Shown in pieces: positions 25,076 to 58,270 of a stretch of 64,000 bases of DNA (positions are counted from its first letter, which is position 1; the number at the start of each line of letters is the position of its first letter). Position numbers and translations under genes: made by a program. The stretch covers positions 21,406,613 through 21,470,612 of the forward strand of contig NC_092392.1 in the NCBI RefSeq assembly GCF_030028105.1, written 5' to 3'. The stretch is from Mobula birostris (Eukaryota). A model generated the notes under the pieces. The model searched no databases, was not told the DNA's origin, and worked only from the letters and a program-made list of their open reading frames with translations.

Positions 25076-25471
25076 TGCAATCTTTTAGCTTTACAATAAG
25101 CTTAGAGGTATTAATGGCATGGTTGGCTCTCTTCTAATTAATTTTACCAAAATAAATGAACATAACTTAATACATTCAAAACAAATATTTTGTATTGTGA
25201 CATGATCGAGGTTATTTTCTATTTTTAAAAAGAATGTAGGAGTCTGGTATAACATTGGTGTACTGCATACTTTTTTTTACAAAAGCATAATCTGATTGCA
25301 AATCTCAAATTTGCTCAGTTTAAATACATTTTCACTGAGGGATAATTGTGTAGTTTTGTGAGTCACACAAAAGAAATTACTACAAAATTTCATTAAAAAA
25401 GCTATTACAGTTAATATTGCATTGTAGTGTCAATATAAAAACTATCTGATATTATATTTGTCTGTTTTCAG

Positions 25472-25603
25472 TTACCAGGCGCTTGAAGTCTATCAAAAAT
25501 ATCCAAAAGATCACCCAGTCCATGAAAATGGTGGCTGCAGCAAAATATGCAAGAGCTGAGAGAGAACTGAAGCCAGCAAGAGTTTATGGAACAGGAGCTC
25601 TTG
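25472..25603 (+). CDS. ATP5F1C: ATP5F1C exon 3 (132 bp; [43 protein letters not shown])
   Basis: ORF 25483..25674; ttttcag acceptor, gtacga donor. Confidence 0.97.
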
Positions 25604-26914
25604 GTACGATAACTGCGGCATGCAATTTCACTTTAGAGTTGTGGAAGAGATTGTCTTCCAAGTCATGGATTTAACCTTTGTGGCAGCTAATGTTCAGCTG
25701 AGTGTTTTTTGCAGGATTGCCAAGTACGTAGTATTTTGAGGGGCAGGGGACAAGGACAAATCTGTGGTTTTATTCACTGCAGGCTTTTCCCACTGAGGTT
25801 GAGTGAGACTAGAACTGAACGCCATAGGTTTGGGGTGAAAGGTGAAATATTGAAGGGGAGCCTGAGGACGAAGTCCTTTACTCAGGGTGGTACAAGTGTG
25901 GAACGAGCTGCAAGCAGAAGTGGTGGGTATGGGTTGGATTGCAATATTTAAGAGAATTTTGGATTAGTACATGGATGGGAGTGGTATGGGCTGCTATGTC
26001 CAGGTGCAGGTCAATAGGACTAGTCAGAATAACAATTCGGCATGGACTAGATGAGCTAAAAGGCCCCTTTCTGTGCTGCTGTGCTTCTTGATTAAGCAGT
26101 AAACCCAAAACGCTGGTGGAACTCAGCAAGTTGACAACATCTATGGAGATGAACAAATGGTCAACTTTTTCAGGCTGGGACTCTTCATCAGAACTGGAAA
26201 GGAAGGGGGAAGAAGCCAGATTCTATTATGCCTTTTTGCTGTCAGAGCTAAAATAAATTGGTTTGCTAATGTAACATCTTAAATAATTTCATTAATTTGA
26301 AAGCGACTATTAATTTCTCGTTAGTCCAATAGGGAAGGGGTAGATTATATAAGCGGTTAATTATAGGCCATTCTTTGTCATAGCAGGTTTTCTTTACTGA
26401 GAACTGTTCACAACTCAGACGGTTCACATTGGAAATCCAGTTGCCTGGCAATATATTTAAACAAAAACATGGACAAGCCAAGGCCAAAATGTAGTTAAAC
26501 TGGGGTGTCTAGCTCAACTATTCAGACATTGCCGCAAATTGAATTTCCACATGACAGAAGATACCTGCAGCAGCTGGCAAATCCATCCCCCAAGTCTCCC
26601 AAACAGGTGATTATAACTTGGGCAGCTCCTATAAACAGTGACTTGTAACACAAATGAAGTTCTTTTGCTACACAATCCAGTCTGCATCATTTGAGACATT
26701 CTCACTCCCTTTTTTGTGATTTCTAGCACATTTCATGCTCCAAGTATGTTGCTTTATTTTAATATTATATAACAGATCTGAATAAAGCAGAGATATCAAG
26801 CATGCTGGCACAATCAGGAAACTAGCAGTCAAATGGGCAAAGATGTTTTGGATAATAGTCCTATTCATTTAAAACATTCTCCCAAACCTACTCACATTAA
26901 GTGCAGTCAAAAGT

Positions 26915-27085
26915 GTTGTTGCTCTCCATGCCTTTGTGGCAAATCAGGCAGCAAACTTAGCATTTGACTGTTTTTTTCGAGGCCATTGCTTGCTCAACGC
27001 TTAACCCAGCACGGATGGAAAGCTTGCAAGGAGCCGGCCAGATTTGAACCCGGGACCACTCATCTCAAAGTACGGCATGAATGTA
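26915..27085 (-). mobile_element. SINE of the same family as 35697-35961
   Basis: Minus-strand B box ggttcaaatc, then ccatccgtgctgggttaagcgttgagcaagcaa. Confidence 0.6.
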
Positions 27086-27223
27086 GGTGGGATCCATGTC
27101 ACAGAAAGCAAGCAGGAAAAGATTCTGCTACTAAGAGTGAACAAAGCACTAGGGTAGCAATGTGAGACGAACATGTGATTGAATGGATTGTTATCTAGTA
27201 GGATGTGGCTATTACATAGGCAG

Positions 27224-27420
27224 TGCTTGGTGTTCATCCTTAATTGCCCTTGAGAAGGATGTGGTGACAGCTGAATGGGTTGCTCAGCCATTTCAGAGGG
27301 CAACTAAATGTCAACCAGGTAAAGGCTGGGCAGAAAAGCTAACAGATTTCCACCTCTAAGAGCATCATTGAGAAGTGTAGTATTCCAGATGCCATTCCAT
27401 TGGGACTAGTGTCATTGTAA
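27224..27420 (-). mobile_element. Old Deu-domain-type SINE fragment (related copy ~21700-21930 on plus)
   Basis: ccttaattgcccttgagaagg...ccatttcagagggcaac motif; family assignment is from memory. Confidence 0.45.
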
Positions 27421-27855
27421 GTGGTTTGGGAGTTATTGAAGGACGTTCAGAGCATTGAAACTGATGATCAAACAAAGTTAAAGATAGTAATTTATATTCA
27501 TCCTGGCTGGATTTTTTTTTATTTAAGTATGCGTCTCAGTCTTGGTAAGCTAATCACCTTGGAGCATTGAGAGATTTGTTTTGTGGCATGTATATGCATC
27601 TTGAGAAATACCTTGTAGCTGTGCGTGCTTGCTGTTTCTCTTACTACAGGTCTTGAAACTGGAGTCTACGGCTGGCATTTCCTCAGCTTTCCCAATGTCT
27701 GATTTTTTTCCATTATAGAGCAATTTATAGGATCTTATTGGCTTGCAAGCTTGGTGTTTTAAATAATTGATGTTATCACCAAAAACAATTTACAACTGTT
27801 TTTATACAGCACTGCATAGATGCAACCTTTTAATGTTTGCTCTGTTTCTCCCAAG

Positions 27856-28060
27856 CTCTGTATGAGAAAGCAGAAATTCAACCCCCTGAAAACCAAGCTA
27901 GACACCTGATTATTGGAGTATCCTCTGACCGTGGTCTATGTGGTGGGATCCACAGTAACATTGCTAAAAACATAAGGAATCAAATACAGGAATTGACTTC
28001 TGCAGGTAAAGAGATCAAGGTCGCTACTATTGGAGAAAAGCTAAGAGCACTGCTGTATAG
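27856..28060 (+). CDS. ATP5F1C: ATP5F1C exon 4 (205 bp; LYEKAEI...HLIIGVSSDRGLCGGIHS...LRALLYR)
   Basis: ORF 27837..28064; SSDRGLCG motif; ctcccaag acceptor, gtaagt donor. Confidence 0.97.
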
Positions 28061-28189
28061 GTAAGTATATCGTGGCTTTCTGAAAATACATCCTTGAAAA
28101 ATATGAAGTTCATAGTGTTTTAGCCAAAAGCACATTATGCTGGTCTTTTGGTATAAATGTTTATTAAATTTGATTTCCTGGTGATGTTC

Positions 28190-29706
28190 CGTGCTTTGTA
28201 GAACAATCTATGTTCCGTGCCTATTCTGGTATCTGTCCCCCACTTTTCCTTCGCTACATCGACGACTGCATTGGCGCTGCTTCCTGCACGCATGCAGAGC
28301 TCGTTGACTTTATTAACTTTGCCTCCAACTTTCACCCTGCCCTCAAGTTTACCTGGTCCATTTCCGACACCTCCTTCCCCTTTCTAGATCTTTCTGTCTC
28401 TGTCTCTGGAGACAGCTTATCCACTGATGTCTACTATAAGCCTACTGATTCTCACAGCTATCTGGACTATTCCTCTTCTCACCCTGTCTCTTGCAAAAAC
28501 GCCATCCCCTTCTCGCAATTCCTCCGTCTCCGCCGCATCTGCTCTCAGGATGAGGCTTTTCATTCTAGGACAAGGGAGATGCCTTCCTTTTTTAAAGAAA
28601 GGCGCTTCCCTTCCTCCACTATCAACTCAGCTCTTAAACGCATCTCCCCCATTTCACGTACATCTGCTCTCACTCCATCCTCCTGCCACCCCACTAGGAA
28701 TAGGGTTCCCCTGGTCCTCACTTACCACCCCACCAGCCTCCGGGTCCAACATATTATTCTCCGTAACTTCCGCCACCTCCAACGGGATCCCACCACTAAG
28801 CACATCTTTCCCTCCCCCCTCCCCCCTGCATTCCGCAGGGATAGCTCCCTACGCAACTCCCTTGTCCATTTGTCCCCCCCGGTCCCTCCCCACTGATCTC
28901 CCTCCTGGCACTTATCCGTGTAAGCGGAACAAGTGCTACACATGCCCTTACACTTCCTCCCTTACCACCATTCAGGGCCCCAAACAGTCCTTCTAGGTGA
29001 GGCAACGCTTCACCTGTGAGTCAGCTGGGGTGATATACTGCGTCTGGTGCTCCCGATGTGGCCTTTTATATATTGGCGAGACCCGACGCAGACTGGGAGA
29101 CCGCTTTGCTGAACACCTATGCTCTGTCCGCCAGAGAAAGCAGGATCTCCCAGTGGCCACACATTTTAATTCCACATCCCATTCCCATTCTGACATGTCT
29201 ATCTACGGCCTCCTCTACTGTAAAGATGAAGCCACACTCAGGTTGGAGGAACAACACCTTATATTCCGTCTGGGTAGCCTCCAACCTGATGGCATGAACA
29301 TTGACTTCTCTAACTTCTGCTAATGCCCCACCTCCCCCCCCGTACCCCATCTGTTACTTATTTTTATGCACACATTCTTTCTCTCACTCTCCTTTTTCTC
29401 CCTCTGTCCCTCTGAATATACCCCTTGCCCATCCTCTGGGCCCCCCCCCCGTCTTTTTTCCCGGACCTCCTGTCCCATGATCCTCTCGTATCCCTTTTGC
29501 CTATCACCTGTCCAGCTCTTGGCTCCATCCCTCCCCCTCCTGTCTTCTCCCATCATTTTGGATCTCCCCCTCCCCCTCCAACTTTCAAATCCCTTACTCA
29601 CTCTTCCTTCAGTTAGTCCTGATGAAGGGTCTCAGCCTGAAACGACGACTGTACCTACAGATGCTGCCTGACCTGCTGCGTTCACCAGCAACTTTTATGT
29701 GTGTTG
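28190..29706 (+). mobile_element. Penelope-like element, 5'-truncated (RT C-half, CKRNKCYTC linker, GIY-YIG, 3' UTR with hammerhead)
   Basis: ORFs 28210..28896 (RYIDD), 28427..28996 and 28997..29323 (VIYCVWC...LYIGETRRRLGDRFAEH); one frameshift and one stop. Confidence 0.94.
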
Positions 29707-30518
29707 TTTTAGTAGAGGTGTTAGTTTATCATCTTAAGTGCTTTACTGCACTCTTTAACAAAGTAACAAAATGTGAATAATTTAAATAATTATTTTCCAG
29801 AGTATCACTTTAAGACCTGTGTAACATTTCTTTGACTTTGCCCTGATATGCAGTGCAGAAACAGGATCTTCAGCCCAACTGATTGATGTCAATCAAGGTG
29901 CCAACCTGAGCTAGACCCATTTGTCTGCATTTGGCTCATGCAAATTCCTGTGCTGGACGGATATTACTTGTTGGATGAATATTCAGTACATTACACTCCC
30001 CAAATTTAAACTGAAAATTGAGTATTCATATTTTCAGAGTGAAGAATTGGGACGATCCTTAAGATTTCTTACAAAACATTAATTATATATTTGAATTGGC
30101 ATTGTTGTTATTGAAACAAACAACTATCTGCAAAATAATTTTGAGTTCATTCACTCTTATTTTTAAGGTACAGTTCCACTGATTTATAGCAGTAACAATC
30201 TTCAATTACAATAGGCTAAAGGTTTATGGAAGTTGTAAAACCAAATTCAAAAAGTACTGAGAAGTTAGCATATAATTGTACGATAAATACAAGATGCCAG
30301 ACTTTTAACCTTTTGCGTCCACCTGGCTTCACCTATTACCTTCCAGCTCATCCTCCTTTCTCGCCCCCCCCACCTTTTCATTCTGCTGCCTGCTTCCTTC
30401 CTTTCCAGTTCTGAAGAAAGGTCTTGGCCCAAAACATTGACTGTTTATTAATTTCCATCGATACTGTCTGACCTGCTGAGTTCTGTGTGTGTGACCTGGA
30501 TTTTGTTTTAAATTGCAG

Positions 30519-30662
30519 AAATTATGGAGGTAATATCCTGTTGATGTTTAAGGAGGTGGGCCGGAAACCACCGACATTTGGTGATGCTTCATTCATTGCC
30601 ACTGAGCTCCTCAACTCGGGCTTTGAGTTTGATAAAGGTTCTATTATCTTCAACAGATTTAA
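30519..30662 (+). CDS. ATP5F1C: ATP5F1C exon 5 (144 bp; [47 protein letters not shown])
   Basis: Translated by hand; ttgcag acceptor, gtaagt donor; [13 protein letters not shown] motif. Confidence 0.96.
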
Positions 30663-31866
30663 GTAAGTTTGTCAGAATGAACGTATTAATGCTGTTTTAA
30701 AATTTCTGCGTCAAAACCTGTACCTTGCTTGTCCCCATCCAACACAGTTACCATGCCTCATGGCATTGTTGAAGTGTTGTTATTATCCAAAACTGTCTCC
30801 TTTATTAAACTTGCCATTGCCATCACTCCTGTTTACCTACTCCAATTGCTGCTGTAAATTTTGTGTGGTACTAGTTCTTATGGTCCATATCTTATAAGAC
30901 ATAGGAGCAGAAGTAGGCCATCGAGCCCATCCAGTCTGCTCCACCATTATGTCCTTACTTTCATTTTCATTTCCTCCATACGGACTTTTGCCTTGATTAT
31001 CATTACAAAATAAATTTCTATTTTAACAGTAACAGTATAGTGCCCTAATTCCATTGACTGAACGTAGAACAATACAGAACAGAGGCAGGCTATTTGGCCT
31101 GCAATGTTTTGCCAAACTAGATAAAAAGCAAATCAGAAACAACCAGACAGTAATCCCTCCTACCTACACCATGTCCATATCCCTCCATCTTCCTCACATC
31201 CATGCCTATCTAAACGTCTGTTAAGCCTCTAATATATTTGCCTCTACCTCCATACCAGGCAGCGCATTCCAGGCATCTATGACACAGAGTAAAAAAACTT
31301 GTCTCTCACATCCCCCTTGAACCTATTCCCTTTCACCTTCAATGCATGCCCTCTGGTATTAGGTATTTCAATCCTGGGAAACAGCTCCTCTCTGTCCACT
31401 CTATCTATGCCTTTCATAATCTTGTAGACCTCTAGCAGTAGTAGCACTGCCTCAACATCTATCATCAAAGATCCCCACCTCTCTAGACATTCAAGGTACT
31501 CTCATCTTTCCATCCCCATTCTTCCTTCTAACAGGAACATGCCTTTCCTATACTCTGTGCCATTGATCTTTAAACACCCTCTACACGTCTGATGTGGACT
31601 TACCAGAGTAAAGTTGTTCCCAATTAAAACTTCATTGTTCCTACCTAATGCCTGCGTAATTTGGCCTACTCCAATTTAAAACTCTTCCTACGAGGATCAT
31701 ACCTGCCCTTGTCTCTAGCTATCCTGAAAGTTAAGGAGTTGTGGTCATTGTCGCATAACTGTTTATCCACTGAAAAGTCAGTCATCTGGCCAGGCTCATT
31801 ACCCAACACCAGGTCCAGTATGACTCCTCCTCGCACTAGGCTGTCCATATATTGATTTAAGAAATG

Positions 31867-33862
31867 CTATAACCTTATAACAATTACAGCACGGAAACAG
31901 GCCATCTCGGCCCTTCTAGTCCGTGCCGAACGCTTACTCTCACCTAGTCCCACCGGCCTGCACTCAGCCCATAACCCTCCATTCCTTTCCTGTCCATATA
32001 CCTATCCAATTTTTCTTTAAATGATGATATCGAACCTGCCTCTACCACTTCTACTGGAAGCTTGTTCCACACAGCCACAGCTCTCTGAGTAAAGAAGTTC
32101 CCCCTCGTGTTATCCCTAAACTTTTGCCCCCTAGCTCTCAACTCATGTCTTCTTGTTTGAATCTCCCCTACTCTCAATGGAAAAATGCCTATCCACGTCA
32201 ACTCTATCTATCCCCCTCATAATTTTAAATACCTCTATCAAGTCCCCCTTCAACCTTCTACGCTCCAAAGAATAAAGACGTAACTTGGTCAACCTTTCTT
32301 TGTAACTAAGTTGCTGAAACCCAGGTAACATTCTAGTAAATCTTCTCTGTACTGTCTCTATATTATTGACATCTTTCCTATAATTCGGTGACCAGAACTG
32401 TACACAATACTCCAGATTGGGCCTTACCAATGCCTTGTACAATTTTAACATTACATCCCAACTCCTATACTCAATGCTCTGATTTATAAAGGCCAGTATA
32501 CCAAAAGCTTTCTTCACCACCCTATCCACATGAGATTCCGCCTTCAGGGAACTATGCACCATTATTCCTAGATCACTCTGTTCTACTGCATTCTTCAATG
32601 CCCAACCAGTTACCATGTACGTCCTATTTTGATTAGTCCTACCAAAATGTAGCACCTCACCTTAGCATTAAACTCCTTCTGCCATCTTTCAGCCCACTCT
32701 TCTAACTGGTCTAAATCTCTCTGCAAGCTTTGAAAACCTGCTTCATTATCCACAATGCCACCTATCTTAGTATCATCTGCATACTTACTAATCCAATTTA
32801 CCACCCCATCATCCAGATCATTAATGTCTAGGACAAACAACGTTGGACCCAGTACAGATCCCTAAGGCACACCGCTAGTCACCGGCCTCCAACCTGACAA
32901 ACAGTTATCCACCACTACTGTCTGGTATCTCCCATCCAGCCACTGTTGAATCCATTTTACTACTTCGATATTAATACCTAACGATTGAACCTTCCTAAAT
33001 AACCTTCCATGTGGAACCTTGTCAAAGGCCTTACTGAAGTCCATATAGACAACATCCACTGCTTTACCCTTGTCAACTTTCCTAGTAACCTCTTCAAAAA
33101 ATTCAATAAGATTTGTCAAACATGACCTTCCACGCACACATCCATGTTGACTGTTCCTAATCAGACCCTGTCTATCCAGATAATTATATATACCATCTCT
33201 AAGAATACTTTCCATTAACTTACCCACCACTGATGTCAAACTTACAGGCCGATAATTGCTAGGTTTACTCTTAGAACCCTTTTTAAACAACAGAACAACA
33301 TGAGCAATACGCCAGTCCTCCGGCACCTTTTCTAAAGACATTTGAAATATTTCTGTCAGAGCCCGACTTCCCTCAGGGTCCTAGGGAATATCCTGTCAGG
33401 ACCCGGAGACTTATCCACTTTTATGTTCCTTAAAAGCGCCAGTACTTCCTCTTCTTTAATCATCATAGTTTCCATAACTTCCCTACTTGTTTCCCTTACC
33501 TTACACAATTCAATATCCTTCTCCTTAGTGAATATCGAAGTATTGTTCAAAATCTCCCCCATCTCCTTTGGCTCCACACATAGCTGTCCACTCTGATTCT
33601 CTAAGGGACCAATTTTATCCCTTACTATCCTTTTGCTAATAATATAACTGTAGAAACCCTTTTAATTTATTTTCACCTTACTTGCCAAAGCAACTTCGTA
33701 TCTTCTTTTAGCTTTTCTAATTTCTTTCTTAAGATTCTTTTTACATTCTTTATATTCCTCGAGCACCTCATTTACTCCATGCTGCCTATATTTATTGTTG
33801 ATATCTCTCTTTTTCCGAACCAAGTTTTCAATATCCCTTGAAAACCATGGCTCTCTCAAACT
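31867..33862 (-). mobile_element. Relatively young CR1 LINE (RT and C-terminus) nested in older CR1 fragments (~31060-31865, ~33930-34520)
   Basis: ORFs 33662-33859, 33356-33577, 32862-33341, 32610-32840 (SKYADDTK), 32143-32655 and 31944-32201. Confidence 0.92.
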
Positions 33863-35371
33863 CCAGAGTTACAGAATACACTTAACAAAATCATGTTTTT
33901 ATTTTTAATTCTCCTTGCATTCTCATTAAAGGTCCCAGTTTATGTTAGGGAAGTTGAAATACCCCCATGACAACAGCCCTATTATTTTTGCACATTTCCT
34001 TAATCTGATTACATATCTGTTTCTCAAATGTCCCCGTGGCTCTGTAGTACAATCCCCTCTGTGTGTTTGCACCTTTCCTGTTCCTGAGTTCCATCCAAAT
34101 GGATTCCGACCCCTTTATTATGTCTCTCCTAAGTGCAGCTGTGATATTATATCTGATTATGATTACTAGTAACCTCTTCCCACCCCCACTACCATCTCCT
34201 ATCTTTTCTAAAACTTCTAAGATCAGAGGACACAGCCTTTTGGAATGTTAGAATGGAGATGAGAAGGAATTTCTTTAGCCAGAGAGTAGTGACTCTGTAG
34301 AATTCATTGCCACAGGCATCTGTGGAGGCCAAGTCTTTATGTATACTTAAGGCAGAGGCTGATAGATTCTTGATTGATCAGGGCAAGAAGGGATACGGGG
34401 AGTGGCGGGGGGAAAGCCTGGAGATTGGGGCTGAGACAAAAAATGGATCAGCCATGATGAAATGGCAGTAGAGACTCAATCGGTCAAATGGCCTAATTCT
34501 GCTCCTGTATCATATGGTCTAATCGAAAACCTGGTGCATTCCTGCCCCTCTCTCAACCAAGTTTCAGACTGCTTTTGTGAAATTTTACTTTATTGTAACT
34601 CAATGCAGGTATCCAATTAGCTTCATAATCACTATTATAACTCTCCAAGGACTTGCCTTACTGATAACATTTGCAGGCACATGGCTTGCTTCAAGTGTAT
34701 TCAAGAAAAATTCTAACTCACTGTCACCTTCAGCATCTGAGCAATGTGATAATTGGTTTACAGCTACCGAGTTACAGTGAAAATCATTTGTTTTTGCATG
34801 CTGGCCATTCAGATCATTTCACTAGTAGAAGGGTAAAGCAGTAACAGAAACTAGTACATTCCAGTCTTGATGAAAGGTCTTGGCCCGAAACGTGGACTGC
34901 TTACCCTTCCGTAGAAGCTGCCTGGTCTGCTGAGTTCCTTCAGCATTTTGTGTGTGTCATTTTGGATTTCCAGCATCCACAGAATTTCTCATGTTTGTGG
35001 AACAGAAACTGATGTTACAGCTACAGAGAAAGTGCAGTGCAGGCTTGACAAAGTAGGTTGTGAGGTCAAGAATCAATCTTATCATATATGGGGTCCATCA
35101 TATTGTACAAGATGTCTGAATGTAAAACAAAAACATTCAGCTTTAACAAGAGAAAGCATTAACATGAAAACAACATGAGGTTACTCATTCTTACCTAATG
35201 TACTATTCAAAACTGACTCGTAAGACAAACTATTGTGTTGACATTGGCCATTGAACTTTTACTTGCTTTCAGGAACAGGCAATGTCAATGCGCTTAGCTA
35301 AGCAATCCTCTAAAGATTGCCCATGATCCTTACCTTGAATACTGTCACAATTGAATTATATTTATTTTTAG

Positions 35372-35436
35372 ATCTGTGATTGCATACAAGACTGAGGAAC
35401 AACCAGTGTTTTCCTTCGATGCCCTGACAGGTTCTG
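35372..35436 (+). CDS. ATP5F1C: ATP5F1C exon 6 (65 bp; SVIAYKTEEQPVFSFDALTGS)
   Basis: tttttag acceptor, gtgagt donor; phase consistent. Confidence 0.94.
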
Positions 35437-35696
35437 GTGAGTAAATATGCTGCCTGCAAGATAATTAAATGAATTTACTGTTACAAGTTTATAAAAATAA
35501 TTGAGGAGAGAAAAAGCATGATATCTCAATTTGTACTGAATAAAAAGTCATAGAGTACAGAACATTACTGCACGGAACAGTCGCCACAGTGTAGGATCTT
35601 TTACCCTACTTTAAGCTCAATCTAACCGTTCTCTCCATTTTTCTATCATCATGTGCCTTTCTAATAGTTTTTTAAGTAATACTCATGTGGTATTTG

Positions 35697-35961
35697 GGTT
35701 GGCTGGTGGCGTAGTGAGATCAGCGCCGGGCTCGAGAATGGAGGTTTCCGAGTTTGATCTAGTGACAGACCGCCCCCGTGCGCACTCGCCATCCGCGCCG
35801 AGTTGACGTCAAGCTCGCAACTCGGCCTTGTAAAATAGCACTGCAAAATGTCTGTGCGAGGAGTGGCGCTCCATACAGCCTTTAGAACTGCGCCTTGCAA
35901 GGCATGAAAATGCCCGACGCTGGCCTCTCAGGTCTGAGTCGACGTCATTGTCATCATCATG
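35697..35961 (+). mobile_element. CpG-rich tRNA-derived SINE with (TCA)n tail
   Basis: A box tggcgtagtg, B-box-like gagtttgatc; imperfect TSD atgtg(g)tatttg. Confidence 0.75.
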
Positions 35962-37099
35962 ATGTGTATTTGCCTCTTTTACTTCCCCTGGCAGGGCATT
36001 CCACACACCCATCCCTCTGTGTAATGAACTTAACCATGAAATCCCCCATACCTTAAGAAATTATTTCCCCTTGTATGAGACATTTTCAACCTGGCAAAAA
36101 GTCTCTAGCTATCCACTTGATCTATACCTAGCCATTTGAGTTTCATATTTATTACTTTTGTGCAAATTTGTGGGTAGATTCTGTTGACAAAGCATGTACC
36201 ACTCTTCCTATTTAAATTTCAAACTGTTCAGGTCCTGTGTCTCCCATTCTGAATCTGATTTGTGCTGTGTGACTCAGCTTACAGCGAGTAGGTGCACATT
36301 TATTCCTTTGATTGGTGGAGGCTGACAGGGTGACACCCGTAACAAGTGGTCTGTTCATAGGAATTCTAGAATTGTCGAGTATTAGAAGAATCGGTAAATA
36401 TCTATTAGGCTCCTCATTGGGTGATTGATAATATGTTGGAAATCATAATCTTTTCTGATCCTGTGTACTAAGTTGAGATCCCATTAAAAATTGTTGAAAT
36501 ACTGGGTTATCATCGAGGCCCAAGGAAGCACAGGCTATACGCTATTAAGAGAGCTAGTCACTCTTTCATGAATCTTCCATGCACCAAGTTTCTTGATGCC
36601 GAATGCAAGATGCAATTCTTTTGAATGTCTTTCACAATTTGGAGAAAGTTTACTTTTTATGATAAATAATGAGCAGTTCATTTGGTAATTATTTCCTTTA
36701 AATTTATTAATTATGAATTATGTATGTTTATGCATAGTGGAATTGATTTCTGAATTTCATAATAAAAAGTATTTACAATAATTAACCATATAATGCCTTT
36801 TTATTCTTGCATTTATAGCAGTGCATTTCATGTTAAATTACATTATTTAAATCAATAACAATGTGTCCCCCTGAGGTGGTACATTACTACAACAAATGAG
36901 GGGCGTCCTCACCCAGCCATGACAAACACATGATCATAAAGCCTAAATGTGTTTAATTATACTTACATTTTGTGTGTTGGGATATATATATAACGCAAAA
37001 TGTGGAATATGGTGCAATTTTTTTCGGATGATCAAGTTATTTTACTTGTACACAGCGGAAGTAATCTGGCTATTAACCATATGTTAATTTTATTTCTAG

Positions 37100-37255
37100 A
37101 GAACATGAGCGTTTATGATGACATTGATGCTGACGTTCTGCGGAACTACCAAGAGTTCTCTCTGGTGAACATCATCTACTTTGGGTTAAAGGAGTCTACT
37201 ACAAGTGAGCAGAGTGCCAGGATGACTGCCATGGATAGTGCCAGCAAGAATGCCG
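37100..37255 (+). CDS. ATP5F1C: ATP5F1C exon 7 (156 bp; [19 protein letters not shown]...[21 protein letters not shown])
   Basis: ORF 37000..37278; ttctag acceptor, gtaagg donor. Confidence 0.97.
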
Positions 37256-38029
37256 GTAAGGAACTTGCATCAATTTAGATGATCGTTTAGTTTAACATAT
37301 TTATCTACTGAAAAGATGAGGTGTTATGGTAAATGAAGATTCATTTTCCGGGTACCCCGTGCGCAACAAATTAACCGTTCTGGACAGGTGACATAAGGAG
37401 CATTACAATTCATCCTGAGGTTCCTGGATTTAAAAAGAAACAAGTTGTCCTTTTTGATTCAATAATTTGTGAACATTCAGAGAGGTCATGGGTTAGGGTG
37501 GGACACGATTGAATAGTGATTTGTGCTCTCTGAATGCCTGCATGACCTGCGTATGACACAATAAAGCAGGCAGTGCCAAAACGTACATATCCAAGAAAAA
37601 AAGAATCTGTACCTTCAGAAGCATTGAAAGTTACTTTTGATGAGGAGAGAGATTATCTTTCTGACCTTGCCATGTTCATACTGTTTCGTGACAAGAAAAA
37701 CTTGGGATATCCCTCAGTAGATTGGAGTTTCTGAAGAAGCAAGTTGGAGGGAGGATGCATCTAGTCTTTCATCTCATGGTTGTTTGGATTGCTTTTCTTT
37801 TGTTCCAGATGTTGACTGTATTGTGTTAAGGTAGATATTCATTTTGTTTCTAAACTTTTCTAAATTGTGCATTTAAATTTGAGAAGCCCCTGTCAGGGTA
37901 ATATCATCAGTCCAAAATATTCCTGTACTACTTATTCTCATTGGGCATCTCTAACTGCTTCCAAGCATTGTTGTCCAATGCAATCCTGCATCTATGTTCA
38001 GCATTGTATTCACTCTTTAATACCAGAGT

Positions 38030-38323
38030 GCCATGGTAGTGTAGCGGTTAGTGCAACGCAATTACAGCTCAGGACATCGGAATTTCAAGTTCAGTCCCAG
38101 CATTCTTGGTAAGGAGTCTGTATATCCTCTCCATGGAATGCATGGGTTTTCTCTGGAAGCTCCGGTTTCCTCCCACAGTCCAAAGATGTACCGGTTAGTA
38201 GGTTAATTGGTCATTGTAAATTGTTCTGTGATTAGGTTGGATTTAATGGGGGGGGGGAGGGTTGTTGGGCGTCACGATTCGAAGGGCCTATTCAATGTTG
38301 TAGCTCTAAATAAATAAATAAAT
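38030..38323 (+). mobile_element. V-SINE (HE1-like) with (TAAA)n tail
   Basis: A box tggtagtgtagcgg; V-domain gctccggtttcctcccacagtccaaaga...ttaattgg. Confidence 0.8.
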
Positions 38324-38764
38324 ATGCATGATGTTATATTTCAAAATAGGCTGGTTCAGCTGTAAAAACTCTGGTACCCTGGGTTATATTGTTCTCTCTT
38401 GACCCCACCTTACTATACAATTATTCTCCTCCACATGCCTTGCCTCTAATTCTGAGTAGAGAAGAGGTACTTGCCACCAGGATGGGAAACTTGGAGGAGT
38501 GAAAAGCCATCTATTCAACTCTTAGAACCCTTGCACTTTTAATCTGCCTCACCGCATTTACGCAGCAGTTTAATCTGGCATTTTATGTATCTCCTTGTCC
38601 TGCAGTTTGGATAAGATGTGTTTGCAATTGACCATTTATCTCAAATGTTGACTTTCCAGATGGGAGCAATGTTTGAACAGATTTAATGTGAAAGCAAATA
38701 GTTTCAGGTAACTTGGCGCTGTTGGTTGATAAGTGTTTTTTTAATATAAAATGCAGAATATAAG

Positions 38765-39050
38765 GCAGCATGTAGCAGATGGTACATTGCTTTTCAGTGC
38801 CAGCAATCACCAATCAGGGTTCAAATTCATGCTAATGCTTGTAAGGCGTTTGTACGGTCAGCCCATGATCCCATGAAACACATTCTAAAGTGTACACTTA
38901 GGGTTAGTAAGTTGTGGGCATGCTATGTTGTCACTGGAAGTATGACAACACTTGTAGGCTATCTGCACAATCCTCCCCGATTTGACTTGACGTCAATGAT
39001 ACATTTCACTGTATGTTTCAATGTACATGTGACAAAGCTAATCTTTTAAT
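38765..39050 (+). mobile_element. Degenerate SINE related to 24690-25075
   Basis: agggttcaaattc and ttgtgggcatgctatgttg shared with the 24.7-kb copy. Confidence 0.6.
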
Positions 39051-39154
39051 TTTATCTTTGAATACTATTTACTGTAAGAAAGCAGAGTTCCAAATGTTGG
39101 ACAAAGAAATGATAAAGGTATAAAGGAAATAATGTGACCTGTTGTTGAATTTAG

Positions 39155-39251
39155 CTGAAATCATTGACAAGCTGACGTTGACGTACAACCGCACTCGCCA
39201 GGCTGTCATTACCAAGGAACTTATTGAGATTATCTCTGGTGCTGCTGCTCT
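39155..39251 (+). CDS. ATP5F1C: ATP5F1C exon 8 (97 bp; [32 protein letters not shown])
   Basis: atttag acceptor, gtaagt donor; C-terminal gamma signature [16 protein letters not shown]. Confidence 0.97.
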
Positions 39252-40136
39252 GTAAGTATTATGCTGAACATGGTTGTGAATTAATGTATAGTGGAAAAAA
39301 ATAACAGTCAAACTAAAGAACCAAGAAGAAATATATACTGCAAAATCAAATTGAGGCTTTAGGTCAAATCTAGATCCTAGAATGTAAAGGTTTTATTTCA
39401 GAATAATTAAGCCAGAATTTAATTTTATGCCATGAACTTTGTTAGACCTTGATTGTCTTGAATACCTCAGACCTTGCAAAATAATTATTGGTTTATAAGT
39501 CAGATAGTCTTGGCCATTTCATTAACCAGTTAGGTCATTAAAAAAATATTAAACTTATGTTGCATTACAGTAAATGGTGACTATTTTTGATCCAAAACGA
39601 GTGTAATTTGACTGTTCCATAAGATTCCAGAAACTTACAATAAAAATGTACAACCAGAAATTTCATTAATGAAACTTACATTTTTCTTGCAAGAACCAAG
39701 AACCACCATTGTGCTACTTCCTGGAGAAAGTCAGCAGGTCAGGCAGCACCAATGGAAAAGAATAACCAGTTGACGATTCGGGCCAAGACCCTTGGTCAGG
39801 ACTGGAAAGGAAGAGGGAATACGTCAGAATAAAAAGCTCTTCTTCCCCTCCTCCACCTTTTTATTCTGGCATCTTCTCCCTTCCTTTCCAGTCTTGGCAA
39901 AGGATCTCGACCAGAATCATCGACTGTTCATTCATTTTCATAGATGTTGCCTGATCTGCTGAATTCCTCCAGCATTTTGTGTGTATTGCTCTGGATTTTC
40001 AGCATCTGTAGAATCTCTTGTGTTTATATTTAATACTGCTCCTTTCCAAATACCTATTTTCTTTGAAACACGAATTTGCAGCTTAAATTTTTTCGGGCCT
40101 GGGATTCCATGCACAGAATAATTTCTGCAATGTTCT

Positions 40137-41573: not shown

Positions 41574-41577
41574 GTAA
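41574..41577 (+). CDS. ATP5F1C: ATP5F1C terminal exon, coding part (CT|G TAA; 292-aa precursor when exon 9 is skipped)
   Basis: tttgcag|GTAA followed by a short 3' UTR and AATAAA. An alternative acceptor ending at 41530 gives the same Leu-stop. Confidence 0.75.
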
Positions 41578-41692
41578 CAATGATGATCCAGGAAGACCTA
41601 AATGAAAAAGAATGAAATCCTCCCTGTTCGAAGATTATGATATGAAATTTCTACTGAATTTGTGGAAATCTAAAGTTTGTAAATTATCATAC

Positions 41693-41698
41693 AATAAA
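41693..41698 (+). terminator. ATP5F1C polyadenylation signal AATAAA (a second one at 41853-41858)
   Basis: AATAAA ~115 nt after the stop, followed by a T/GT-rich downstream element (ttttttgtgtt). Confidence 0.75.
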
Positions 41699-42909
41699 AC
41701 CTGACAGTGAATGACTCATTTTTGTGTTATATCTCTTTCATTGCTAACAGTTAGGTACAGTTTTCTTTGAGAGTAGCATTACATAAATCATTTCCAAGAT
41801 CTTACTGAGATTAGCCCACTGATTTTTCATGAAACATAATTGTTGATATCTCAATAAACTGCATTTTTCTTAACACTCATGGTCCACTTACTCAGTGAAT
41901 CCGTATTTTAGAAGTATGTGCTCAGGGAATACTTGCTTCAAGGACACTCAAAAGGAAGGATCATTTACCCACCTGGTACTCAGGTTGTATGATACCGGTA
42001 GAGGGTTCGAAAGAAGTTCTACACTGGTTCTTGGACTCAGTTGTTTAATTATTTTCACCCGTGCTGGAGTTAGTTACAGTAAATCCTTTTGGTTAAAACT
42101 GATCTTTTCAAGGACTATTTGTGGCACACATATGGGTGCTCCACAGAGAGGGAGTAAAGAAAAAGGGAAACTGGGAGTATGCAATAAGCCGCAGGGAATC
42201 AACTGGAGGAAGTCTAATGTGGGCAGTGAAGTGTGACAGTGGAATCTAGAGGAGTCTGCAGCCAATCAGAAGTAGTTTTATTATCACTGATACATTGTGA
42301 AATTTCTTTTACAGCAGTAGTACAGTGCAATACATTAAAAATGTATTAGCCACATAAATATTTTTTTTAATTACCATAGATGTTGCATAATCAGATTGAA
42401 TTAATTCAGAATTTGTCGATTGAAACGTCAGATTCCTAGTTTCCTGGTAATAGCAAAATACTGAAATGTAGTGAACCCAGGCAAGGAATAATACTGTCTG
42501 CTTAAGCCACCTTGATGAGCAAAGGACCTTTCAGTTGGCACTGTTGCTTTACTACCAAGGATTTGGAAACAATATGTACTTAAAAAAACAGCTTACTGAG
42601 CCATCAGTATTTTTAATCAGATGTTTCCTTTCTATTCATCTGCTTCAGAATTGGGTTTATTATCACTGGCATATGTCATGAAATTTGTTGGTTTGTGGCA
42701 GTGCAATACATAAAATATACTATAAGTTACAGTAAAAAATATTTTAAAATTAGTGCAAAAAGAGAGCAAAATTATGAACTTGGACTGTTCCAAAATCTGA
42801 TGGCAGAGGGGAAGACACTGTTTTTAAAATGTTAAGTGTGTGTCTTCAGACTCCTGTACCTCCACCCCATTGGTAGTAATGAAAAGAGGGCATGACCTGG
42901 ATGGTGAGG

Positions 42910-44097
42910 CTTTAGACCACCTGGACAACACAAACTGATGGACAACATCAACTATAGATCAGCATTTAATACCAACATTCCCATAATCCTGACTGAGAAG
43001 TTGCAGAACCTGGGCCTCTGTACCTCGCTCTGCAATTGGATCCTTGACTTAATAACTGGAAGACCATAATCTGTGGAATGGTGATAATATCTCCTCGCCG
43101 ACAATCAACACTGGTGCACCACGGGTGTTTGCTTAGCCCACTGCTCTACTCTATATACACGTGACTGTATGGCTAGGCGTAGCTAAAATACCATCTATAA
43201 ATTTGCTGATGATACAACCATTGTTGGTAGAATCTCAGGTGTTGACAATAGGGCGTACAGTAGTGAGATATGCCAACTACTGGAGTGGTGCCGCAGCAAC
43301 AACCTGGCACTCAACGTTAGTAAGTCGAAAGAGTTAATTGTGGACTTCAGGAAGGGTAAGACAAAGGAACACATACCAATCCTCATAGAGGGATCAGAAG
43401 TGGAGAGAGTGAGCAGTTTCAAGCTTCTGGGTGTCAAGATCTCTGAGAATCTAACCTGGTCCCAACATATTGATGCAATTGTAAAGAAGGCAAGACAGCG
43501 TCTGTACTTTATTATTAAAGTTTGAAGAGATCTGGCATGTCAGCAAATACACTCAAAACTTCTATAGAGGTACCTTGGAGAGCATTCTGACAGGCTGTAT
43601 CACCATCTGGTAAGGGGGGGGGGGGGCTACTGCACACGCCGAAAGAAGCTGCAGAGGGTTGTAAATCTAGTCAGCTTCATCTTTGGTACTAGCCTACAAA
43701 GTACCCAGGACATCTTCAGGGAACAGTGTCTCAGAAAGGTAGCATCCATTATTAAGGACGTCCAGCACCCAGGGCATGTCCTTTTCTCACTGTTACCATC
43801 AGGTAAGAGGTACAGAAGTCTGAAGGCACACATTCAGCAATTCAGGAACAGCTTCTTCCCCTCTGCCATCCAATTCCTAAGTGGATATTTAATCCTTGAA
43901 CCACTACCTCACTTTTTTTAAAAATACAGTATATAGTATTTCTGTTTTTTGCATTATTTTTAATCTATTTGGTATATGTATACTGTATAAGATTTATTTA
44001 TTATTTTTTTCTTCCATATTATGTATGGCATTGAACTGCTGCTACTAAGCTAACAAATTTCACGTCACATGCCGGTGATAATAAACCTGATTCTGAC
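42910..44097 (+). mobile_element. Rex1/Babar RT fragment, flanked by opposite-strand Rex1 pieces (~42645-42910 and ~44100-44470)
   Basis: KFADDTT motif near 43198; ORF 43340..43525; tail aataaacctgattctga. Confidence 0.85.
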
Positions 44098-45256
44098 GGA
44101 TGTCACTTTTTTGGAAGCATTGCCTTTTGAAGATCCCCTCAATGGTGGGGAGGCTAGTGCCTATGAAGGAGCTGGCTGAGTTTGCAACCGTCTGCAGCTT
44201 TTTCTGATCCTGTGCATTGAACCTCCATACCAGATGGTGATGCAACCATTTAGAATGCTCTACATGGTACATCTGTAGAAATTTGCTGGAGTCTGGTGAC
44301 ATACCAATTCGTCTCAAACTAATGAATTATAGCTGATGGTGTGCCTTCTTCATAATGGCATCAATATGTTGGATCCCGGATAGACCATAAGAGATGTTGA
44401 TACCTAGAATTTGAAACTGCTCACCCTTTCCACTCTGGCCCCTTGCTGAGGACTAGTGTGAGTTCTCCCAACTTCTCTTCATTATGGGTGAGTCTTATCT
44501 GGATTGCTATTCTCAGTTTCCTAATGATGACATTCAAAGGTTTAGGAGAAGGGACAGAAATGAATTTGGCAGTAAAGATTATAAATCCTCAAGGGTAGTG
44601 AATATAGGCAAAGAATAATAATAATGTCTGCTTAACCCATCTCGACCACCAGCAGAACCTTCAGGCAGCACTGCTGCTTTGTTAATGTATACAATTGAAT
44701 TAACCTGCTCTTTGTACATAAATACAATGCCAGTAGCTCAGAAAACTGTTGTTAAGCAACAGTTAATCAAGATAATATTTTCCATTAAATTCTTGGCTAA
44801 TTAAACTGATTGTTCCTGTTTTTTAATTATAACAGTACTCTTTTTCTTTTAATTCTAACAAAGAGTACCTGCAACATTTATACTTTTAGTGTTACAATTT
44901 AAGAAAATGAGCATAATTACCAGTAATTTCAACTAATCTTCATTTTCTCCTCTTTTATATAAAAAAAAGTTGTACTTCTTTAGCAACACACAGGCAATTC
45001 ATTCAGAAATCAGCCATCTTCATGACTTTGGCACTCTAGTTAAGAACCAAGACCAAGAGTGATTTCAAAGGCCTTTCAAGTCTGCCCACCATTTTAGACC
45101 ATAAGATATAGGAGCAGAATTAGTCCATTTAACTTATCAAGTTTGCTTGCTCTGCCATTTCATCATGGCTGATCCATTTTTTTTTCTTAGCCCCAAACTC
45201 CTGCATTTCACCTGTATCCTTTCATGCCTTGACCCATCAAGAAACTAGCAAACTAT

Positions 45257-46599
45257 ATCCGACACCTCCCTCCCCTTTCTAGATCTTTCTGTCTCTGTCT
45301 CTGGAGACAGCTTATCCACTGACTCTCACCTACTGACTCTCACAGCTATCTGGACTATTCCTCTTCTCACCCTGTCTCTTGCAAAAACGCCATCCCCTTC
45401 TCACAATTCCTCCGTCTCTGCCGCATCTGCTCTCAGGATGAGGCTTTTCATTCTAGGATGAGGGAGATGTCTTCCTTTTTTAAAGAAAGGGACTTCCCTT
45501 CCTCCACTATCAACTCTGCTCTTAAACGCATCTCCCCCATTTCACGTACATCTGCTCTCACTCCATCCTCTCGCCACCCCACTAGGAATAGGGTTCCCCT
45601 GGTCCTCACCTACCACCCCACCAGCCTCCGGGTCCAACATATTATTCTCCGTAACTTCCGCCACCTCCAACGGAATCCCACCACTAAGCACATCTTTCCT
45701 TCCCTCCCCCCTGCATTCCGCAGGGATCGCTCCCTACACAACTCCCTTGTCCATTTGTCCCCCCCATCCCTCCCCACTGATCTCCCTCCTGGCACTTATC
45801 CGTGTAAGCGGAACAAGTGCTACACATGCCCTTACACTTCCTCCCTTACCACCATTCAGGGCCCCAAACAGTCCTTCCAGGTGAGGCAACACTTCACCTG
45901 TGAGTCGACTGGGGTGATATACTGCGTCTGGTGCTCCCGATGTGGCCTTTTATATATTGGCGAGACCCGATGCAGACTGGGAGACCGCTTTGCTGAACAT
46001 CTACGCTCTGTCCGCCAGAGAAAGCAGGATCTCCCAGTGGCCACATATTTTAATTCCACATCCCATTCCCATTCTGACATGTCCATCCACGGCCTCCTCT
46101 ACTGTAAGGATGAAGCCACACTCAGGTTGGAGGAACAACACCTTATATTCCGTCTGAGTAGCCTCCAACCTGATGGCATGAACATCAACTTCTCTAACTT
46201 CCGCTAAGGCCCCACCTCCCCCTCGTATCCCATCTGTTATTCATTTTTATGCACACATTCTTTCTCTCACTCTCCTTTTTCTCCCTCTGTCCCTCTGAAT
46301 ATACCTCTTGCCCATCCTCTGGGTCCCCCCCCCCTTGTCTTTCTTCCCGGACCTCTTGTCCCATGATCCTCTCGTATCCCCTTTTGCCTATCACCTGTCC
46401 AGCTCTTGGCTCTATCCCTCCCCATCCTGTCTTCTCCTATCATTTTGGATCTCCCCCTCCCCCTCCAACTTTCAAATCCCTTACTCACTCTTCCTTCAGT
46501 TAGTCCTGACGAAGGGTCACGGCCTGAAACGTCGACTGCACCTCTTCCTACAGATGCTGCCTGGCCTGCTGTGTTCACCAGCAAATTTGATGTGTGTTG
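45257..46599 (+). mobile_element. Penelope-like element, 5'-truncated, with an uninterrupted linker + GIY-YIG ORF and an intact hammerhead
   Basis: ORF 45458..46207; highly similar to the 15-kb and 28-kb copies. Confidence 0.94.
46502..46537 (+). ncRNA. Minimal type I hammerhead ribozyme motif in the Penelope 3' end
   Basis: agtc-CTGACGA-agg(gtcacgg)cct-GAAA-c-GTC-gact: helix I agtc/gact, intact core, helix II agg/cct, GUC triplet (cleavage 3' of 46533). Confidence 0.75.
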
Positions 46600-48360
46600 G
46601 TAAATATACATAAAGATTAAGCTTCCACAACTGCTGACAGTGGCAAAGAATTCCACAGATTTGCCACTCTGGCTAAAGAAATCCCTCCTCATCTCTGTTC
46701 TAAAAGGACACCCTTCTATCCTGAGGCTGTGTCCTCTGGTCTTAGGCTCTCCCACCTTTGGAAACATCCTCTACACATCCAATCAAGGCCTTTCACCATT
46801 CGATAGGTTTCAATTAGGTCACCCCTCATTCCTCTGAATTCTAGTGAATACAGGCCTAAATGCTATTCAAATGGCAAGCCGTTCAATCCTGGAATCATTT
46901 TTGTGAACCTCCTTTGAACCCTCTCCAGTTTTAGCACATCCTTTCTAAGATAAGGGGCCCAAAACTGCTCACAATACTCCAAGTGAGGCCTTGCCAGTGC
47001 TTTATAAGGTCTCAACGTTAGATCCTTGCTTTTATATTCTAGTCCTCTTAAAATGAATGCTGATATTGCATTTGCCATCCTCACTACAGACTCAACCTGC
47101 AAATTAACCTTTAGGGAATCCTGCACAAAAACTCCCAAGTCCCTTTGTGTCTCCGATTTTTGTATTATTTCTCCATTTAGAAAATAGTCAACCCTTTAAT
47201 TTCTTCCACCAAAGTGCATGACCATATATTTCCCAATGCTGTATTCCATCTGCCACTTCTTTGCCAATTCTCCTAATCTAAGAACTTCTGTAGCCTCTCT
47301 GCATCCTCAAAACTACCTGCCCCTCCACTTAAATTCGTATTATCTGCAAACTTTGCAACAAAGCCATCAATACCATCATCCAAATTATTGACATACAACA
47401 TAAAAATAACTTGTCCCAATACAGACCTCTGCCGCTGCTTTATCCATGTTGGAATCTTTCCTGTAATACCATGGGCTTGTTGCTTGTTAAGCAACCTCAT
47501 AGGTGGCACCTTGTCAAAGGCCTTCTGAAAATCCAAGTACACAACATCAACCAATTCTCCCTTGTCTATCCTGCTTGTTATTTCTTCAAAGAATTCCAAC
47601 AGATTTGTCAGGCTGGAATTTCCCTTGAAGAAACCATGCTGACTATGACCTATTCTGTCATGTACCTCCAAGTACCCTGAAACCACATCCTTAACAATCA
47701 ACTACTGGCTAACTTACTTTCATATTCCATCTTTACCTTTTTAATGACTTTTTTAGTTACTTTCTGTCAGTTTTTAAAAGCTTCCCAATCCTCTAACTTC
47801 CCACTAATTTTGCTCTATTATATGCCCTCTCTTTGATTTTTATGTTGGCTTTGACTTGTATTGTTAGGCACGCACATCTTGCCTTTAGAATACTTCTTCC
47901 TCTTTGGGATGTATATATCCTGTGTCTTCCATATTGCTTCCAGAAATTCCAGTCATTGATGTTCTCCGTCCTCCCTGCCAGTGTTCTTTTCCAATCAATT
48001 CCGGCCAACTCGTCTCTCTTCCCTTTACTCCACCGTAATACTGATACATCTGACTTTAGCTTCTCCTTCTCAAATTTCATTGTAAATTCATTCATATTAT
48101 GATCTCTCTCCCCTTAGGTTTCTTTTTAGATCCAGATCCCGAATCTGGGCCGTACCCTCCAAATATCCAGACCTGCCTCTCGTTTTTTTTTGCACTACCT
48201 TACTTCCCATTTTTCTATTTTCTATTTATGATTTATAATTTAAATTTTTAATATTTACTATCGATTTGTAATTCAGGGAGCGGGAAGGGCAGAATCAAAT
48301 ATCGCTGTGATGATTGTATGTTCTAGTATCAATTGTTTGGCGACAATAAAGTATAAAGTA

Positions 48361-57699: not shown

Positions 57700-58270
57700 T
57701 CCCATGACTCGGTCGTCGCTCTTCTTCGGATCCCAGCTCCAGGGGAAGACGCCGCTCGATCGGACCTCTTCGCCTTCCCTCTGCTGGGCCCGTCTCCCCG
57801 CAACCACACAGGCCCGCTCAGTCGATACGGAAACAATCGATAGCGATCCGTCACCAGTCACTGGTGGAACTCGATTGGTGGCGCCTGGCGGAGCCCGGCG
57901 GCACAACATGGCGGCAGCGGCGGTGGCGCGGGCCGGGCGGTTGCATGGGCGGCGGATCCCGGTGAGCCGGTGCCATTGACGGCGGCGGGACAGGGGGCGG
58001 GTGACTCGTCCCGGGTTGGCCAGCCGCGATGTGTGAAAGTTACGGTCGGGCGCTGCTGCGGGTGGCGGTGGCGCAGATCTGCCAGGCGCTGGGCTGGGAC
58101 TCGGTGCAGCTCACGGCCTGCGACATCCTCACCGACGTGCTCAACAGGTACATGGAGCAGCTGAGCCACGGCTGCCACCGCTACAGCGAGCTGTGTGAGT
58201 ACCGACGCCGCCGCAGCGCGCACCGGGCACATGGGTAGAGGGAGGATTGTGTGCGGCGGGCATCCCGGAG
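57700..58270 (+). promoter_or_regulatory. TAF3 CpG island/promoter with YY1-like AACATGGCGGC (57905-57915) and inverted CCAAT (57874-57878)
   Basis: Sharp CpG and GC enrichment around the TAF3 ATG. Confidence 0.8.
58029..58194 (+). CDS. TAF3: TAF3 coding exon 1 (166 bp; histone-fold domain MCESYGRALLRVAVAQICQALGWDSVQLTACDILTDVLNRYMEQLSHGCHRYSEL). The gene continues off the right edge.
   Basis: ORF 58029..58238; recognisable TAF3 N-terminus; CTG T|gtgagt donor. Confidence 0.96.

Follow-up and report, generated by a model that had tools for sequence, protein, structure and literature searches.

The locus between ATP5F1C and the next gene

The window analysed here, a stretch of 64,000 nucleotides of the Mobula birostris genome (all coordinates are window positions), carries ATP5F1C, the gene for ATP synthase gamma, on its + strand, where profile PF00231 matches four exons within 25471-39252. 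In three of the four RNA-like runs, contigs link 39251 with the last exon at 41574, and one RNA-like contig stops at 41707, behind an AATAAA signal (41693-41698). The next gene is marked by an exon with a Bromo_TP match, and on synteny it is likely TAF3. A minimal hammerhead ribozyme motif sits between the known exons of these two genes, within a Penelope-like element (PLE) copy that interrupts an older repeat:

41574-41707, + strand: last exon of ATP5F1C (ATP synthase gamma), from RNA-like contigs and the AATAAA at 41693-41698
45096-45254, - strand: left part of an older LINE-like host repeat, running uninterrupted into 46600 and beyond in three further copies within the window
45255-46599, + strand: 5'-truncated Penelope-like element copy (end of the ORF, 3' UTR and pLTR) without the 30-40 nt tail, from alignment ends
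45323-46207, + strand: open frame of 294 aa, the C-terminal part of the element ORF, with a CX4CxxC linker and GIY-YIG, from a profile match
46487-46499, + strand: pyrimidine-rich segment whose predicted pairing with 46506-46517 would mask the ribozyme, from folding
46500-46506, + strand: stretch where short family copies preferentially begin (46501-46504) and putative RNA start near A46502, from copy ends
46501-46538, + strand: minimal type I hammerhead, from a descriptor match and folding
46600-47701, - strand: right part of the LINE-like host repeat, with a reverse transcriptase fragment (RVT_1, E=2.7e-7 at 47276-47701)
58044-58193, + strand: Bromo_TP exon of the next gene, from a profile match

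From the ATP5F1C 3' end (41707) to the predicted cut (46533) there are 4,826 nt, in agreement with the original prediction, which had placed the motif in sense orientation about 4.8 kb past that end. Six more AATAAA or ATTAAA hexamers lie between the main ATP5F1C signal and the hammerhead. The RNA-like runs are assembled contigs, none on record as RNA, whose starts, ends and strand are not readable and in which the family repeat attracts reads from thousands of loci. Downstream of the main poly(A) signal and site, low-depth contigs of run X9 (41730-42241 and 42371-42674) suggest continued transcription, and a second AATAAA is found at 41853. A contig of run X3 (39154-39977, depth 587) carries the last coding exon match and continues into the intron; together with the X9 contigs and the AATAAA at 41853, it makes alternative 3' ends of ATP5F1C possible. 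The unique stretch 44520-45075 has almost no RNA-like contig cover, which carries no weight either way.

Other repeats accompany the gene. A LINE-like element fragment with RVT_1 and ALKBH8_N matches (42930-43920, + strand) lies downstream of the poly(A) site and upstream of the Penelope copy. In the last ATP5F1C intron, two older head-to-head pLTR copies (39720-40000) form a long hairpin (z=-12.6), where the X3 contig shows seven A>G differences (39899-39919); these would fit A-to-I editing of the intron RNA.

Sequence and structure of the hammerhead

The full set of hammerhead core nucleotides that had been claimed for this site is indeed present: C3-A9 read CUGACGA (46506-46512), G12-A15.1 read GAAA (46526-46529) and U16.1-C17 occupy 46532-46533, where a GUC ends, with the predicted cut 3' of 46533. 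Helix I also stands as first described, with five pairs between 46501-46505 and 46534-46538, as does the vestigial helix III with its self-complementary ACGU (46529-46532). Only the CG at 46530-46531 separates A15.1 from U16.1, and the monomer therefore lacks a helix III. The exception is helix II, first read as agg/ccu, a register that is probably off by one. Folding assigns it a pairing probability of only 0.02, versus 0.86-0.96 for GGGU (46514-46517) with GCCU (46522-46525), which leaves A46513 unpaired. We also rejected the agg/ccu register because 7,812 of the 35,075 genome matches to the motif (see below) have C at the position of 46525, turning its first pair into A-C; in the shifted register the same C yields a canonical G10.1-C11.1 pair, and the copy at 46501-46538 has G.U there.

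A descriptor of minimal hammerheads matched exactly once in the window, at 46501-46538, versus twice in total in 100 random windows. Rfam returned nothing at gathering score across the window and no hammerhead family at E<=10 within 46000-47000, and the motif does not stand out by fold z-score (-1.27, -0.13 and +0.50).

These features correspond to the minimal hammerheads that sit in the pLTRs of metazoan PLEs, including the fish elements Xena, Poseidon and Neptune, according to the available part of Cervera and De la Pena (2014; PMC4209133). The conserved core of that group (CUGANGA / GAAA / UH) is present, and so is its layout, with a short helix I of 4-5 bp and a helix II, no helix III and palindromic positions 15.2-16.2. 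The unpaired base between 9 and 10.1 reported there as a trait (PMC4209133, in part) is A46513. The G10.1-C11.1 pair, a recurring trait outside that paper's descriptor and hence not a defining one (PMC4209133, in part), is absent from the window copy, which has G.U instead. The Mobula copy thus resembles metazoan PLE hammerheads in core, architecture and pLTR position, and differs in having G.U for the conserved G10.1-C11.1 and a helix II of 4 bp (PMC4209133, in part).

A truncated Penelope-like element

The limits of the element copy (45255-46599) were set by the ends of alignments with 30 loci and with the other window copies, and the alignment runs through to 46599 in 57 of 71 family copies. 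The copy splits the LINE-like repeat; in three further window copies of that repeat the left and right halves follow each other without a break. Within the 294-aa frame, the CX4CxxC motif precedes a GIY-YIG domain (PF01541, E=0.00097, below the curated cut-off), and the hammerhead lies downstream of this ORF, in the 3' pLTR. Its layout and its position in the pLTR bear out the earlier assignment to the Penelope-type minimal hammerheads thought to act as dimers. A non-LTR retrozyme, made of non-coding tandem repeats with one hammerhead per unit, was rejected on account of the single copy behind a coding fragment.

The window holds other copies. A second long one (28360-29706, + strand) lies in sense in an ATP5F1C intron, is 94% identical and has its core broken at U16.1; further sense copies at 30411 and 34867 also have broken cores. 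A third long copy (15010-16344, - strand) is 88.5% identical, with a broken core and an inverted piece at 16617-16706.

Longer members of the family elsewhere in the genome show the organization of EN+ PLEs. Two of the 12 loci chosen for long open frames, L061 and L062, have single ORFs (794 and 824 aa) with a reverse transcriptase and, at the C terminus, GIY-YIG, all with scores below curated cut-offs (RVT_1 E=1e-5 and 0.0018; GIY-YIG E=0.0042 and 0.0014, respectively). Searching PDB sequences with the 824-aa ORF brought up no meaningful match (best E=0.39). The locus L071 has the tandem arrangement pLTR-ORF-pLTR, with ribozymes 3,513 bp apart, an ORF split over two frames and an inverted truncated copy adjoining its 5' side; inverted copies occur in four of the 12 long loci (L063, L067, L069 and L071). 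The partial pLTR tandem, the inverted truncated neighbour and the 30-40 bp tail expected of EN+ PLEs are thus all found.

According to Craig et al. (2021; PMC8557442, in part), a CX2-5CxxC linker is characteristic of two clades, Neptune and Nematis, and the CX4CxxC in the Mobula ORF fits it, making the family a putative Neptune/Nematis-type element. With these EN+ PLEs the Mobula family shares the order of reverse transcriptase and C-terminal GIY-YIG, the linker and the pLTRs, as well as an adjacent inverted 5'-truncated copy, an optional tail and heavy 5' truncation (PMC8557442, in part). By contrast, the window copy is reduced to a single pLTR and the final 294 codons of open frame.

Abundance, age and decay

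A 34-letter pattern of the motif occurs 35,075 times without mismatch in the 4.0 Gb genome, almost equally divided between the strands (17,304 and 17,771), versus never for the reversed-pattern control, and a pattern from the 3' half of the pLTR has 54,289 matches. In 25 stretches of 10 kb chosen regardless of the motif we found 42 pLTR-like matches; of the 26 that extend across the ribozyme, 14 retained the core. The family exceeds the minimal hammerhead copy numbers given for coelacanth (4,000) and Xenopus (9,000) in the available part of PMC4209133, with the reservation that the counting methods differ. Position 11.1 is U (G.U) in 27,263 of the 35,075 matches and C (G-C) in the other 7,812, and G.U is found in 71 of 71 copies of the youngest subfamily, to which the window copy belongs. 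This subfamily probably lost G10.1-C11.1 through CpG decay in a master element that kept spreading.

Across copies, the hammerhead core decays at the rate of its flanks. Among 71 copies (of 150 ranked matches, chosen by ORF similarity alone), all of which extend through the ribozyme, the core is intact in 60; leaving out 20 polymorphic columns, non-CpG substitutions number 7/710 in the core versus 288/23,029 in flanks and UTR (Fisher p=0.73). Strong selection on all copies is rejected (8.9 core changes expected, P(0)=1.4e-4), a test that speaks to the copies jointly and not to any single one. With the copies decaying neutrally, covariation within the family would be uninformative. Compared with the majority letters, the window copy has 9 differences in 395 nt, as a young insertion would, and its intact core is therefore expected from youth alone.

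A contig of run X23 (116 nt) links 45254 with 46599 across four intervening letters. Its right side is 68/69 identical to the window, against a likeness of no more than 68-78% between paralogous host repeats, which makes this single contig, from a run whose species may differ, likely to represent the empty orthologous site. Run X24, the second of the two genome-scale runs, gave no empty-site contig among the matches listed.

Predicted folding at the locus

Folding predictions do not favour a cutting-competent motif. In the 38-mer alone, G5-G8 pairs with the cleavage strand with a probability of 0.97-0.99, and this misfold reaches -11.0 kcal/mol versus -7.0 for the open scaffold. Once upstream and downstream context is added, 46487-46499 covers the core and the probability of helix I falls from about 0.95 to 0.001, while that of the open-core scaffold falls from 1e-3 to 2-4e-7. 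Any ATP5F1C read-through RNA necessarily includes this masking segment. For a tandem dimer, the double-hammerhead fold is predicted at -8.2 kcal/mol versus -26.4 for an inactive duplex. These nearest-neighbour energies take no account of Mg2+, proteins, folding kinetics or tertiary contacts within the core. The descriptor found no second intact core in the 64-kb window and, therefore, there is no cis partner for dimer cleavage.

The 5' ends of family copies

We examined 94 distinct copies, recognized by the pattern of the pLTR 3' half among the first 100 matches listed on one contig (L140-L229), less the last five and one other, and excluding apparent 5' ends upstream of about 46470, mostly stops of the ungapped walk at indels. 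A tail extends beyond the common 3' end in 48 of them. The 5' end lies within 46501-46540 in 42 copies, and in 20 of these 42 it falls within 46501-46504, on the first bases of helix I (binomial p=6e-10, for an interval picked post hoc). No copy among the 94 starts at 46534, the cut product; a single 5' end at 46533 is a small deletion. Since cut RNAs used as templates would yield copies starting at 46534, the RNAs copied into DNA look uncut. Many short copies on the same contig stand head to head with an inverted partner.

The pile-up at helix I likely marks the beginning of the element RNA, near A46502, in the initiator-like context TTAGTCC, which resembles the initiator YYANWYY. A splice acceptor at the start of helix I would also explain it, and one is reported at a comparable point in the D. 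virilis Penelope; against this, the Mobula copies have no upstream exon in common. If the RNA does start there, the short copies are likely run-off products of internal priming of reverse transcription, by analogy with the anole element discussed below.

Discussion

Our analyses identify the motif downstream of ATP5F1C, with a probability of roughly 90%, as a minimal hammerhead in the 3' pLTR of a 5'-truncated PLE copy, an inactive passenger with no role for ATP5F1C. Target-primed reverse transcription, initiated at the common 3' end of the family (46599) and halted at 45255, would have produced the copy, whose core is presumably still intact since the insertion is young. In a read-through RNA, the predicted fold lays 46487-46499 over the core; without masking, a monomer would be expected to pair G5-G8 with the cleavage strand and to be unable to form helix III, such that cutting should need a second intact copy and probably the protein of the element too. 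Any ribozyme function would belong to active master elements and not to the window copy. What counts against the passenger reading is the lesion-free core, the sole intact one in the window.

Published systems point in a similar direction. In the available part of PMC4209133, the Schistosoma minimal hammerhead is inactive as a monomer and its dimer activity is low. The anole Poseidon element PAc cleaves only with protein, and cleavage is dispensable for insertion (Frangieh et al. 2024, PMC11167929, in part). The cutting of read-through RNA suggested for the locus finds no support here either: published PLE hammerheads lack monomer activity, show low dimer activity or depend on protein (available parts of these sources). 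The same anole study, in its available part, found no RNA-seq reads ending at the cut site (PMC11167929). Like the Mobula family, PAc has its hammerhead in the pLTR, apparently uses uncut RNA as template, and shows two 3' ends, with and without tail, fitting two internal start sites of reverse transcription (PMC11167929, in part). Unlike in the Mobula family, with its CX4CxxC, the PAc clade is described without the linker motif, and the PAc ORF starts inside the ribozyme, whereas L071 has its first in-frame ATG downstream of the tail (available part of PMC11167929).

The hammerhead class is already known, and the one departure of the Mobula motif, G.U for G10.1-C11.1, is common to most of its family. 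Lunse et al., going by the title, report dimer cleavage, and a review (PMC6765202, in part) summarizes their work. A 2026 preprint, in its available part, notes hammerhead-bearing PLE derivatives in one chondrichthyan and treats Neptune and Poseidon as the widespread vertebrate groups (10.64898/2026.07.22.740005). One searched supplement of PMC4209133 contains no shark or skate entry (source available in part). Our literature search, which left most subscription papers and Repbase outside, found no published description of the Mobula family from sharks or rays and no published PLE start site at the hammerhead.

Occasional cutting of the passenger copy in trans is an unlikely alternative, although the better of the two that grant the window copy any activity. 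Its ACGU would pair with other family transcripts, with the element protein helping and no selected benefit. The core is intact, there are 35,075 matching copies, family sequence is abundant in the RNA-like contigs, such that trans partners for dimer cleavage may exist, and protein-assisted cleavage has been shown for the anole element (PMC11167929, in part). Opposed to this are the predicted masking and inactive duplex, the 0/94 copies starting at the cut product, the low in vitro dimer activity (PMC4209133, in part) and the lack of reads ending at the anole cut site in the available part of PMC11167929.

Co-option of the copy to cut ATP5F1C read-through RNA, helping to terminate transcription before the next gene, is highly improbable: the sense orientation 4.8 kb past the 3' end and upstream of the exon at 58044 and the intact core speak for it, but orientation is a coin toss in a family about equally frequent on both strands, the X23 contig points to an empty site, there is no cis partner, masking is predicted, and six further hexamers precede the motif. 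A role of the hammerhead in ATP5F1C is accordingly unlikely, and the suggestion that read-through RNA could be cut gives way to the tens of thousands of sister copies, the predicted masking, the absence of a cis partner, the youth of the insertion and the decay of cores at the flank rate.

Domesticated mammalian hammerheads have a real helix III, are active as monomers and are conserved. Examples named in PMC6155905 (in part) are those of the Clec2 3' UTR and a RECK intron. Like the Mobula motif, they are oriented in sense with a host transcription unit. The Mobula motif, unlike them, has no helix III, lies outside the mRNA and belongs to a young insertion.

For the family itself, we tentatively raise the idea, which we hold to be rather doubtful, that the ribozyme is a position-dependent off-switch of the retrotransposon, with an RNA start at helix I, an active 5' ribozyme, masked 3' copies and only uncut RNAs copied. 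The 5' ribozyme, at the capped end, would fold briefly during transcription, whereas each 3' ribozyme, including the window copy, would be masked by upstream pLTR sequence; cleavage would strip the cap and remove the RNA from the cycle, such that only uncut RNAs would pass into DNA. Modelling of L071 disfavours a simple 5'-on/3'-off switch: its 5' ribozyme is predicted to be free only early, with a helix I probability of about 0.6 at 60 nt, 0.11 at 100 nt and 0.001 at 150 nt.

Returning to the passenger reading, the locus is of little import, one young transposon end among tens of thousands. Cutting of ATP5F1C read-through RNA, if true, would add a new example of host transcription termination being shaped by a transposon ribozyme, but the evidence opposes it. 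The family, by contrast, constitutes a large natural record on the question of whether PLE hammerheads cut in vivo. The pile-up at helix I and the lack of cut-site ends favour uncut templates, in agreement with the in vitro work on the anole element (PMC11167929, in part), and the off-switch, if true, could be read from where tens of thousands of genomic copies end.
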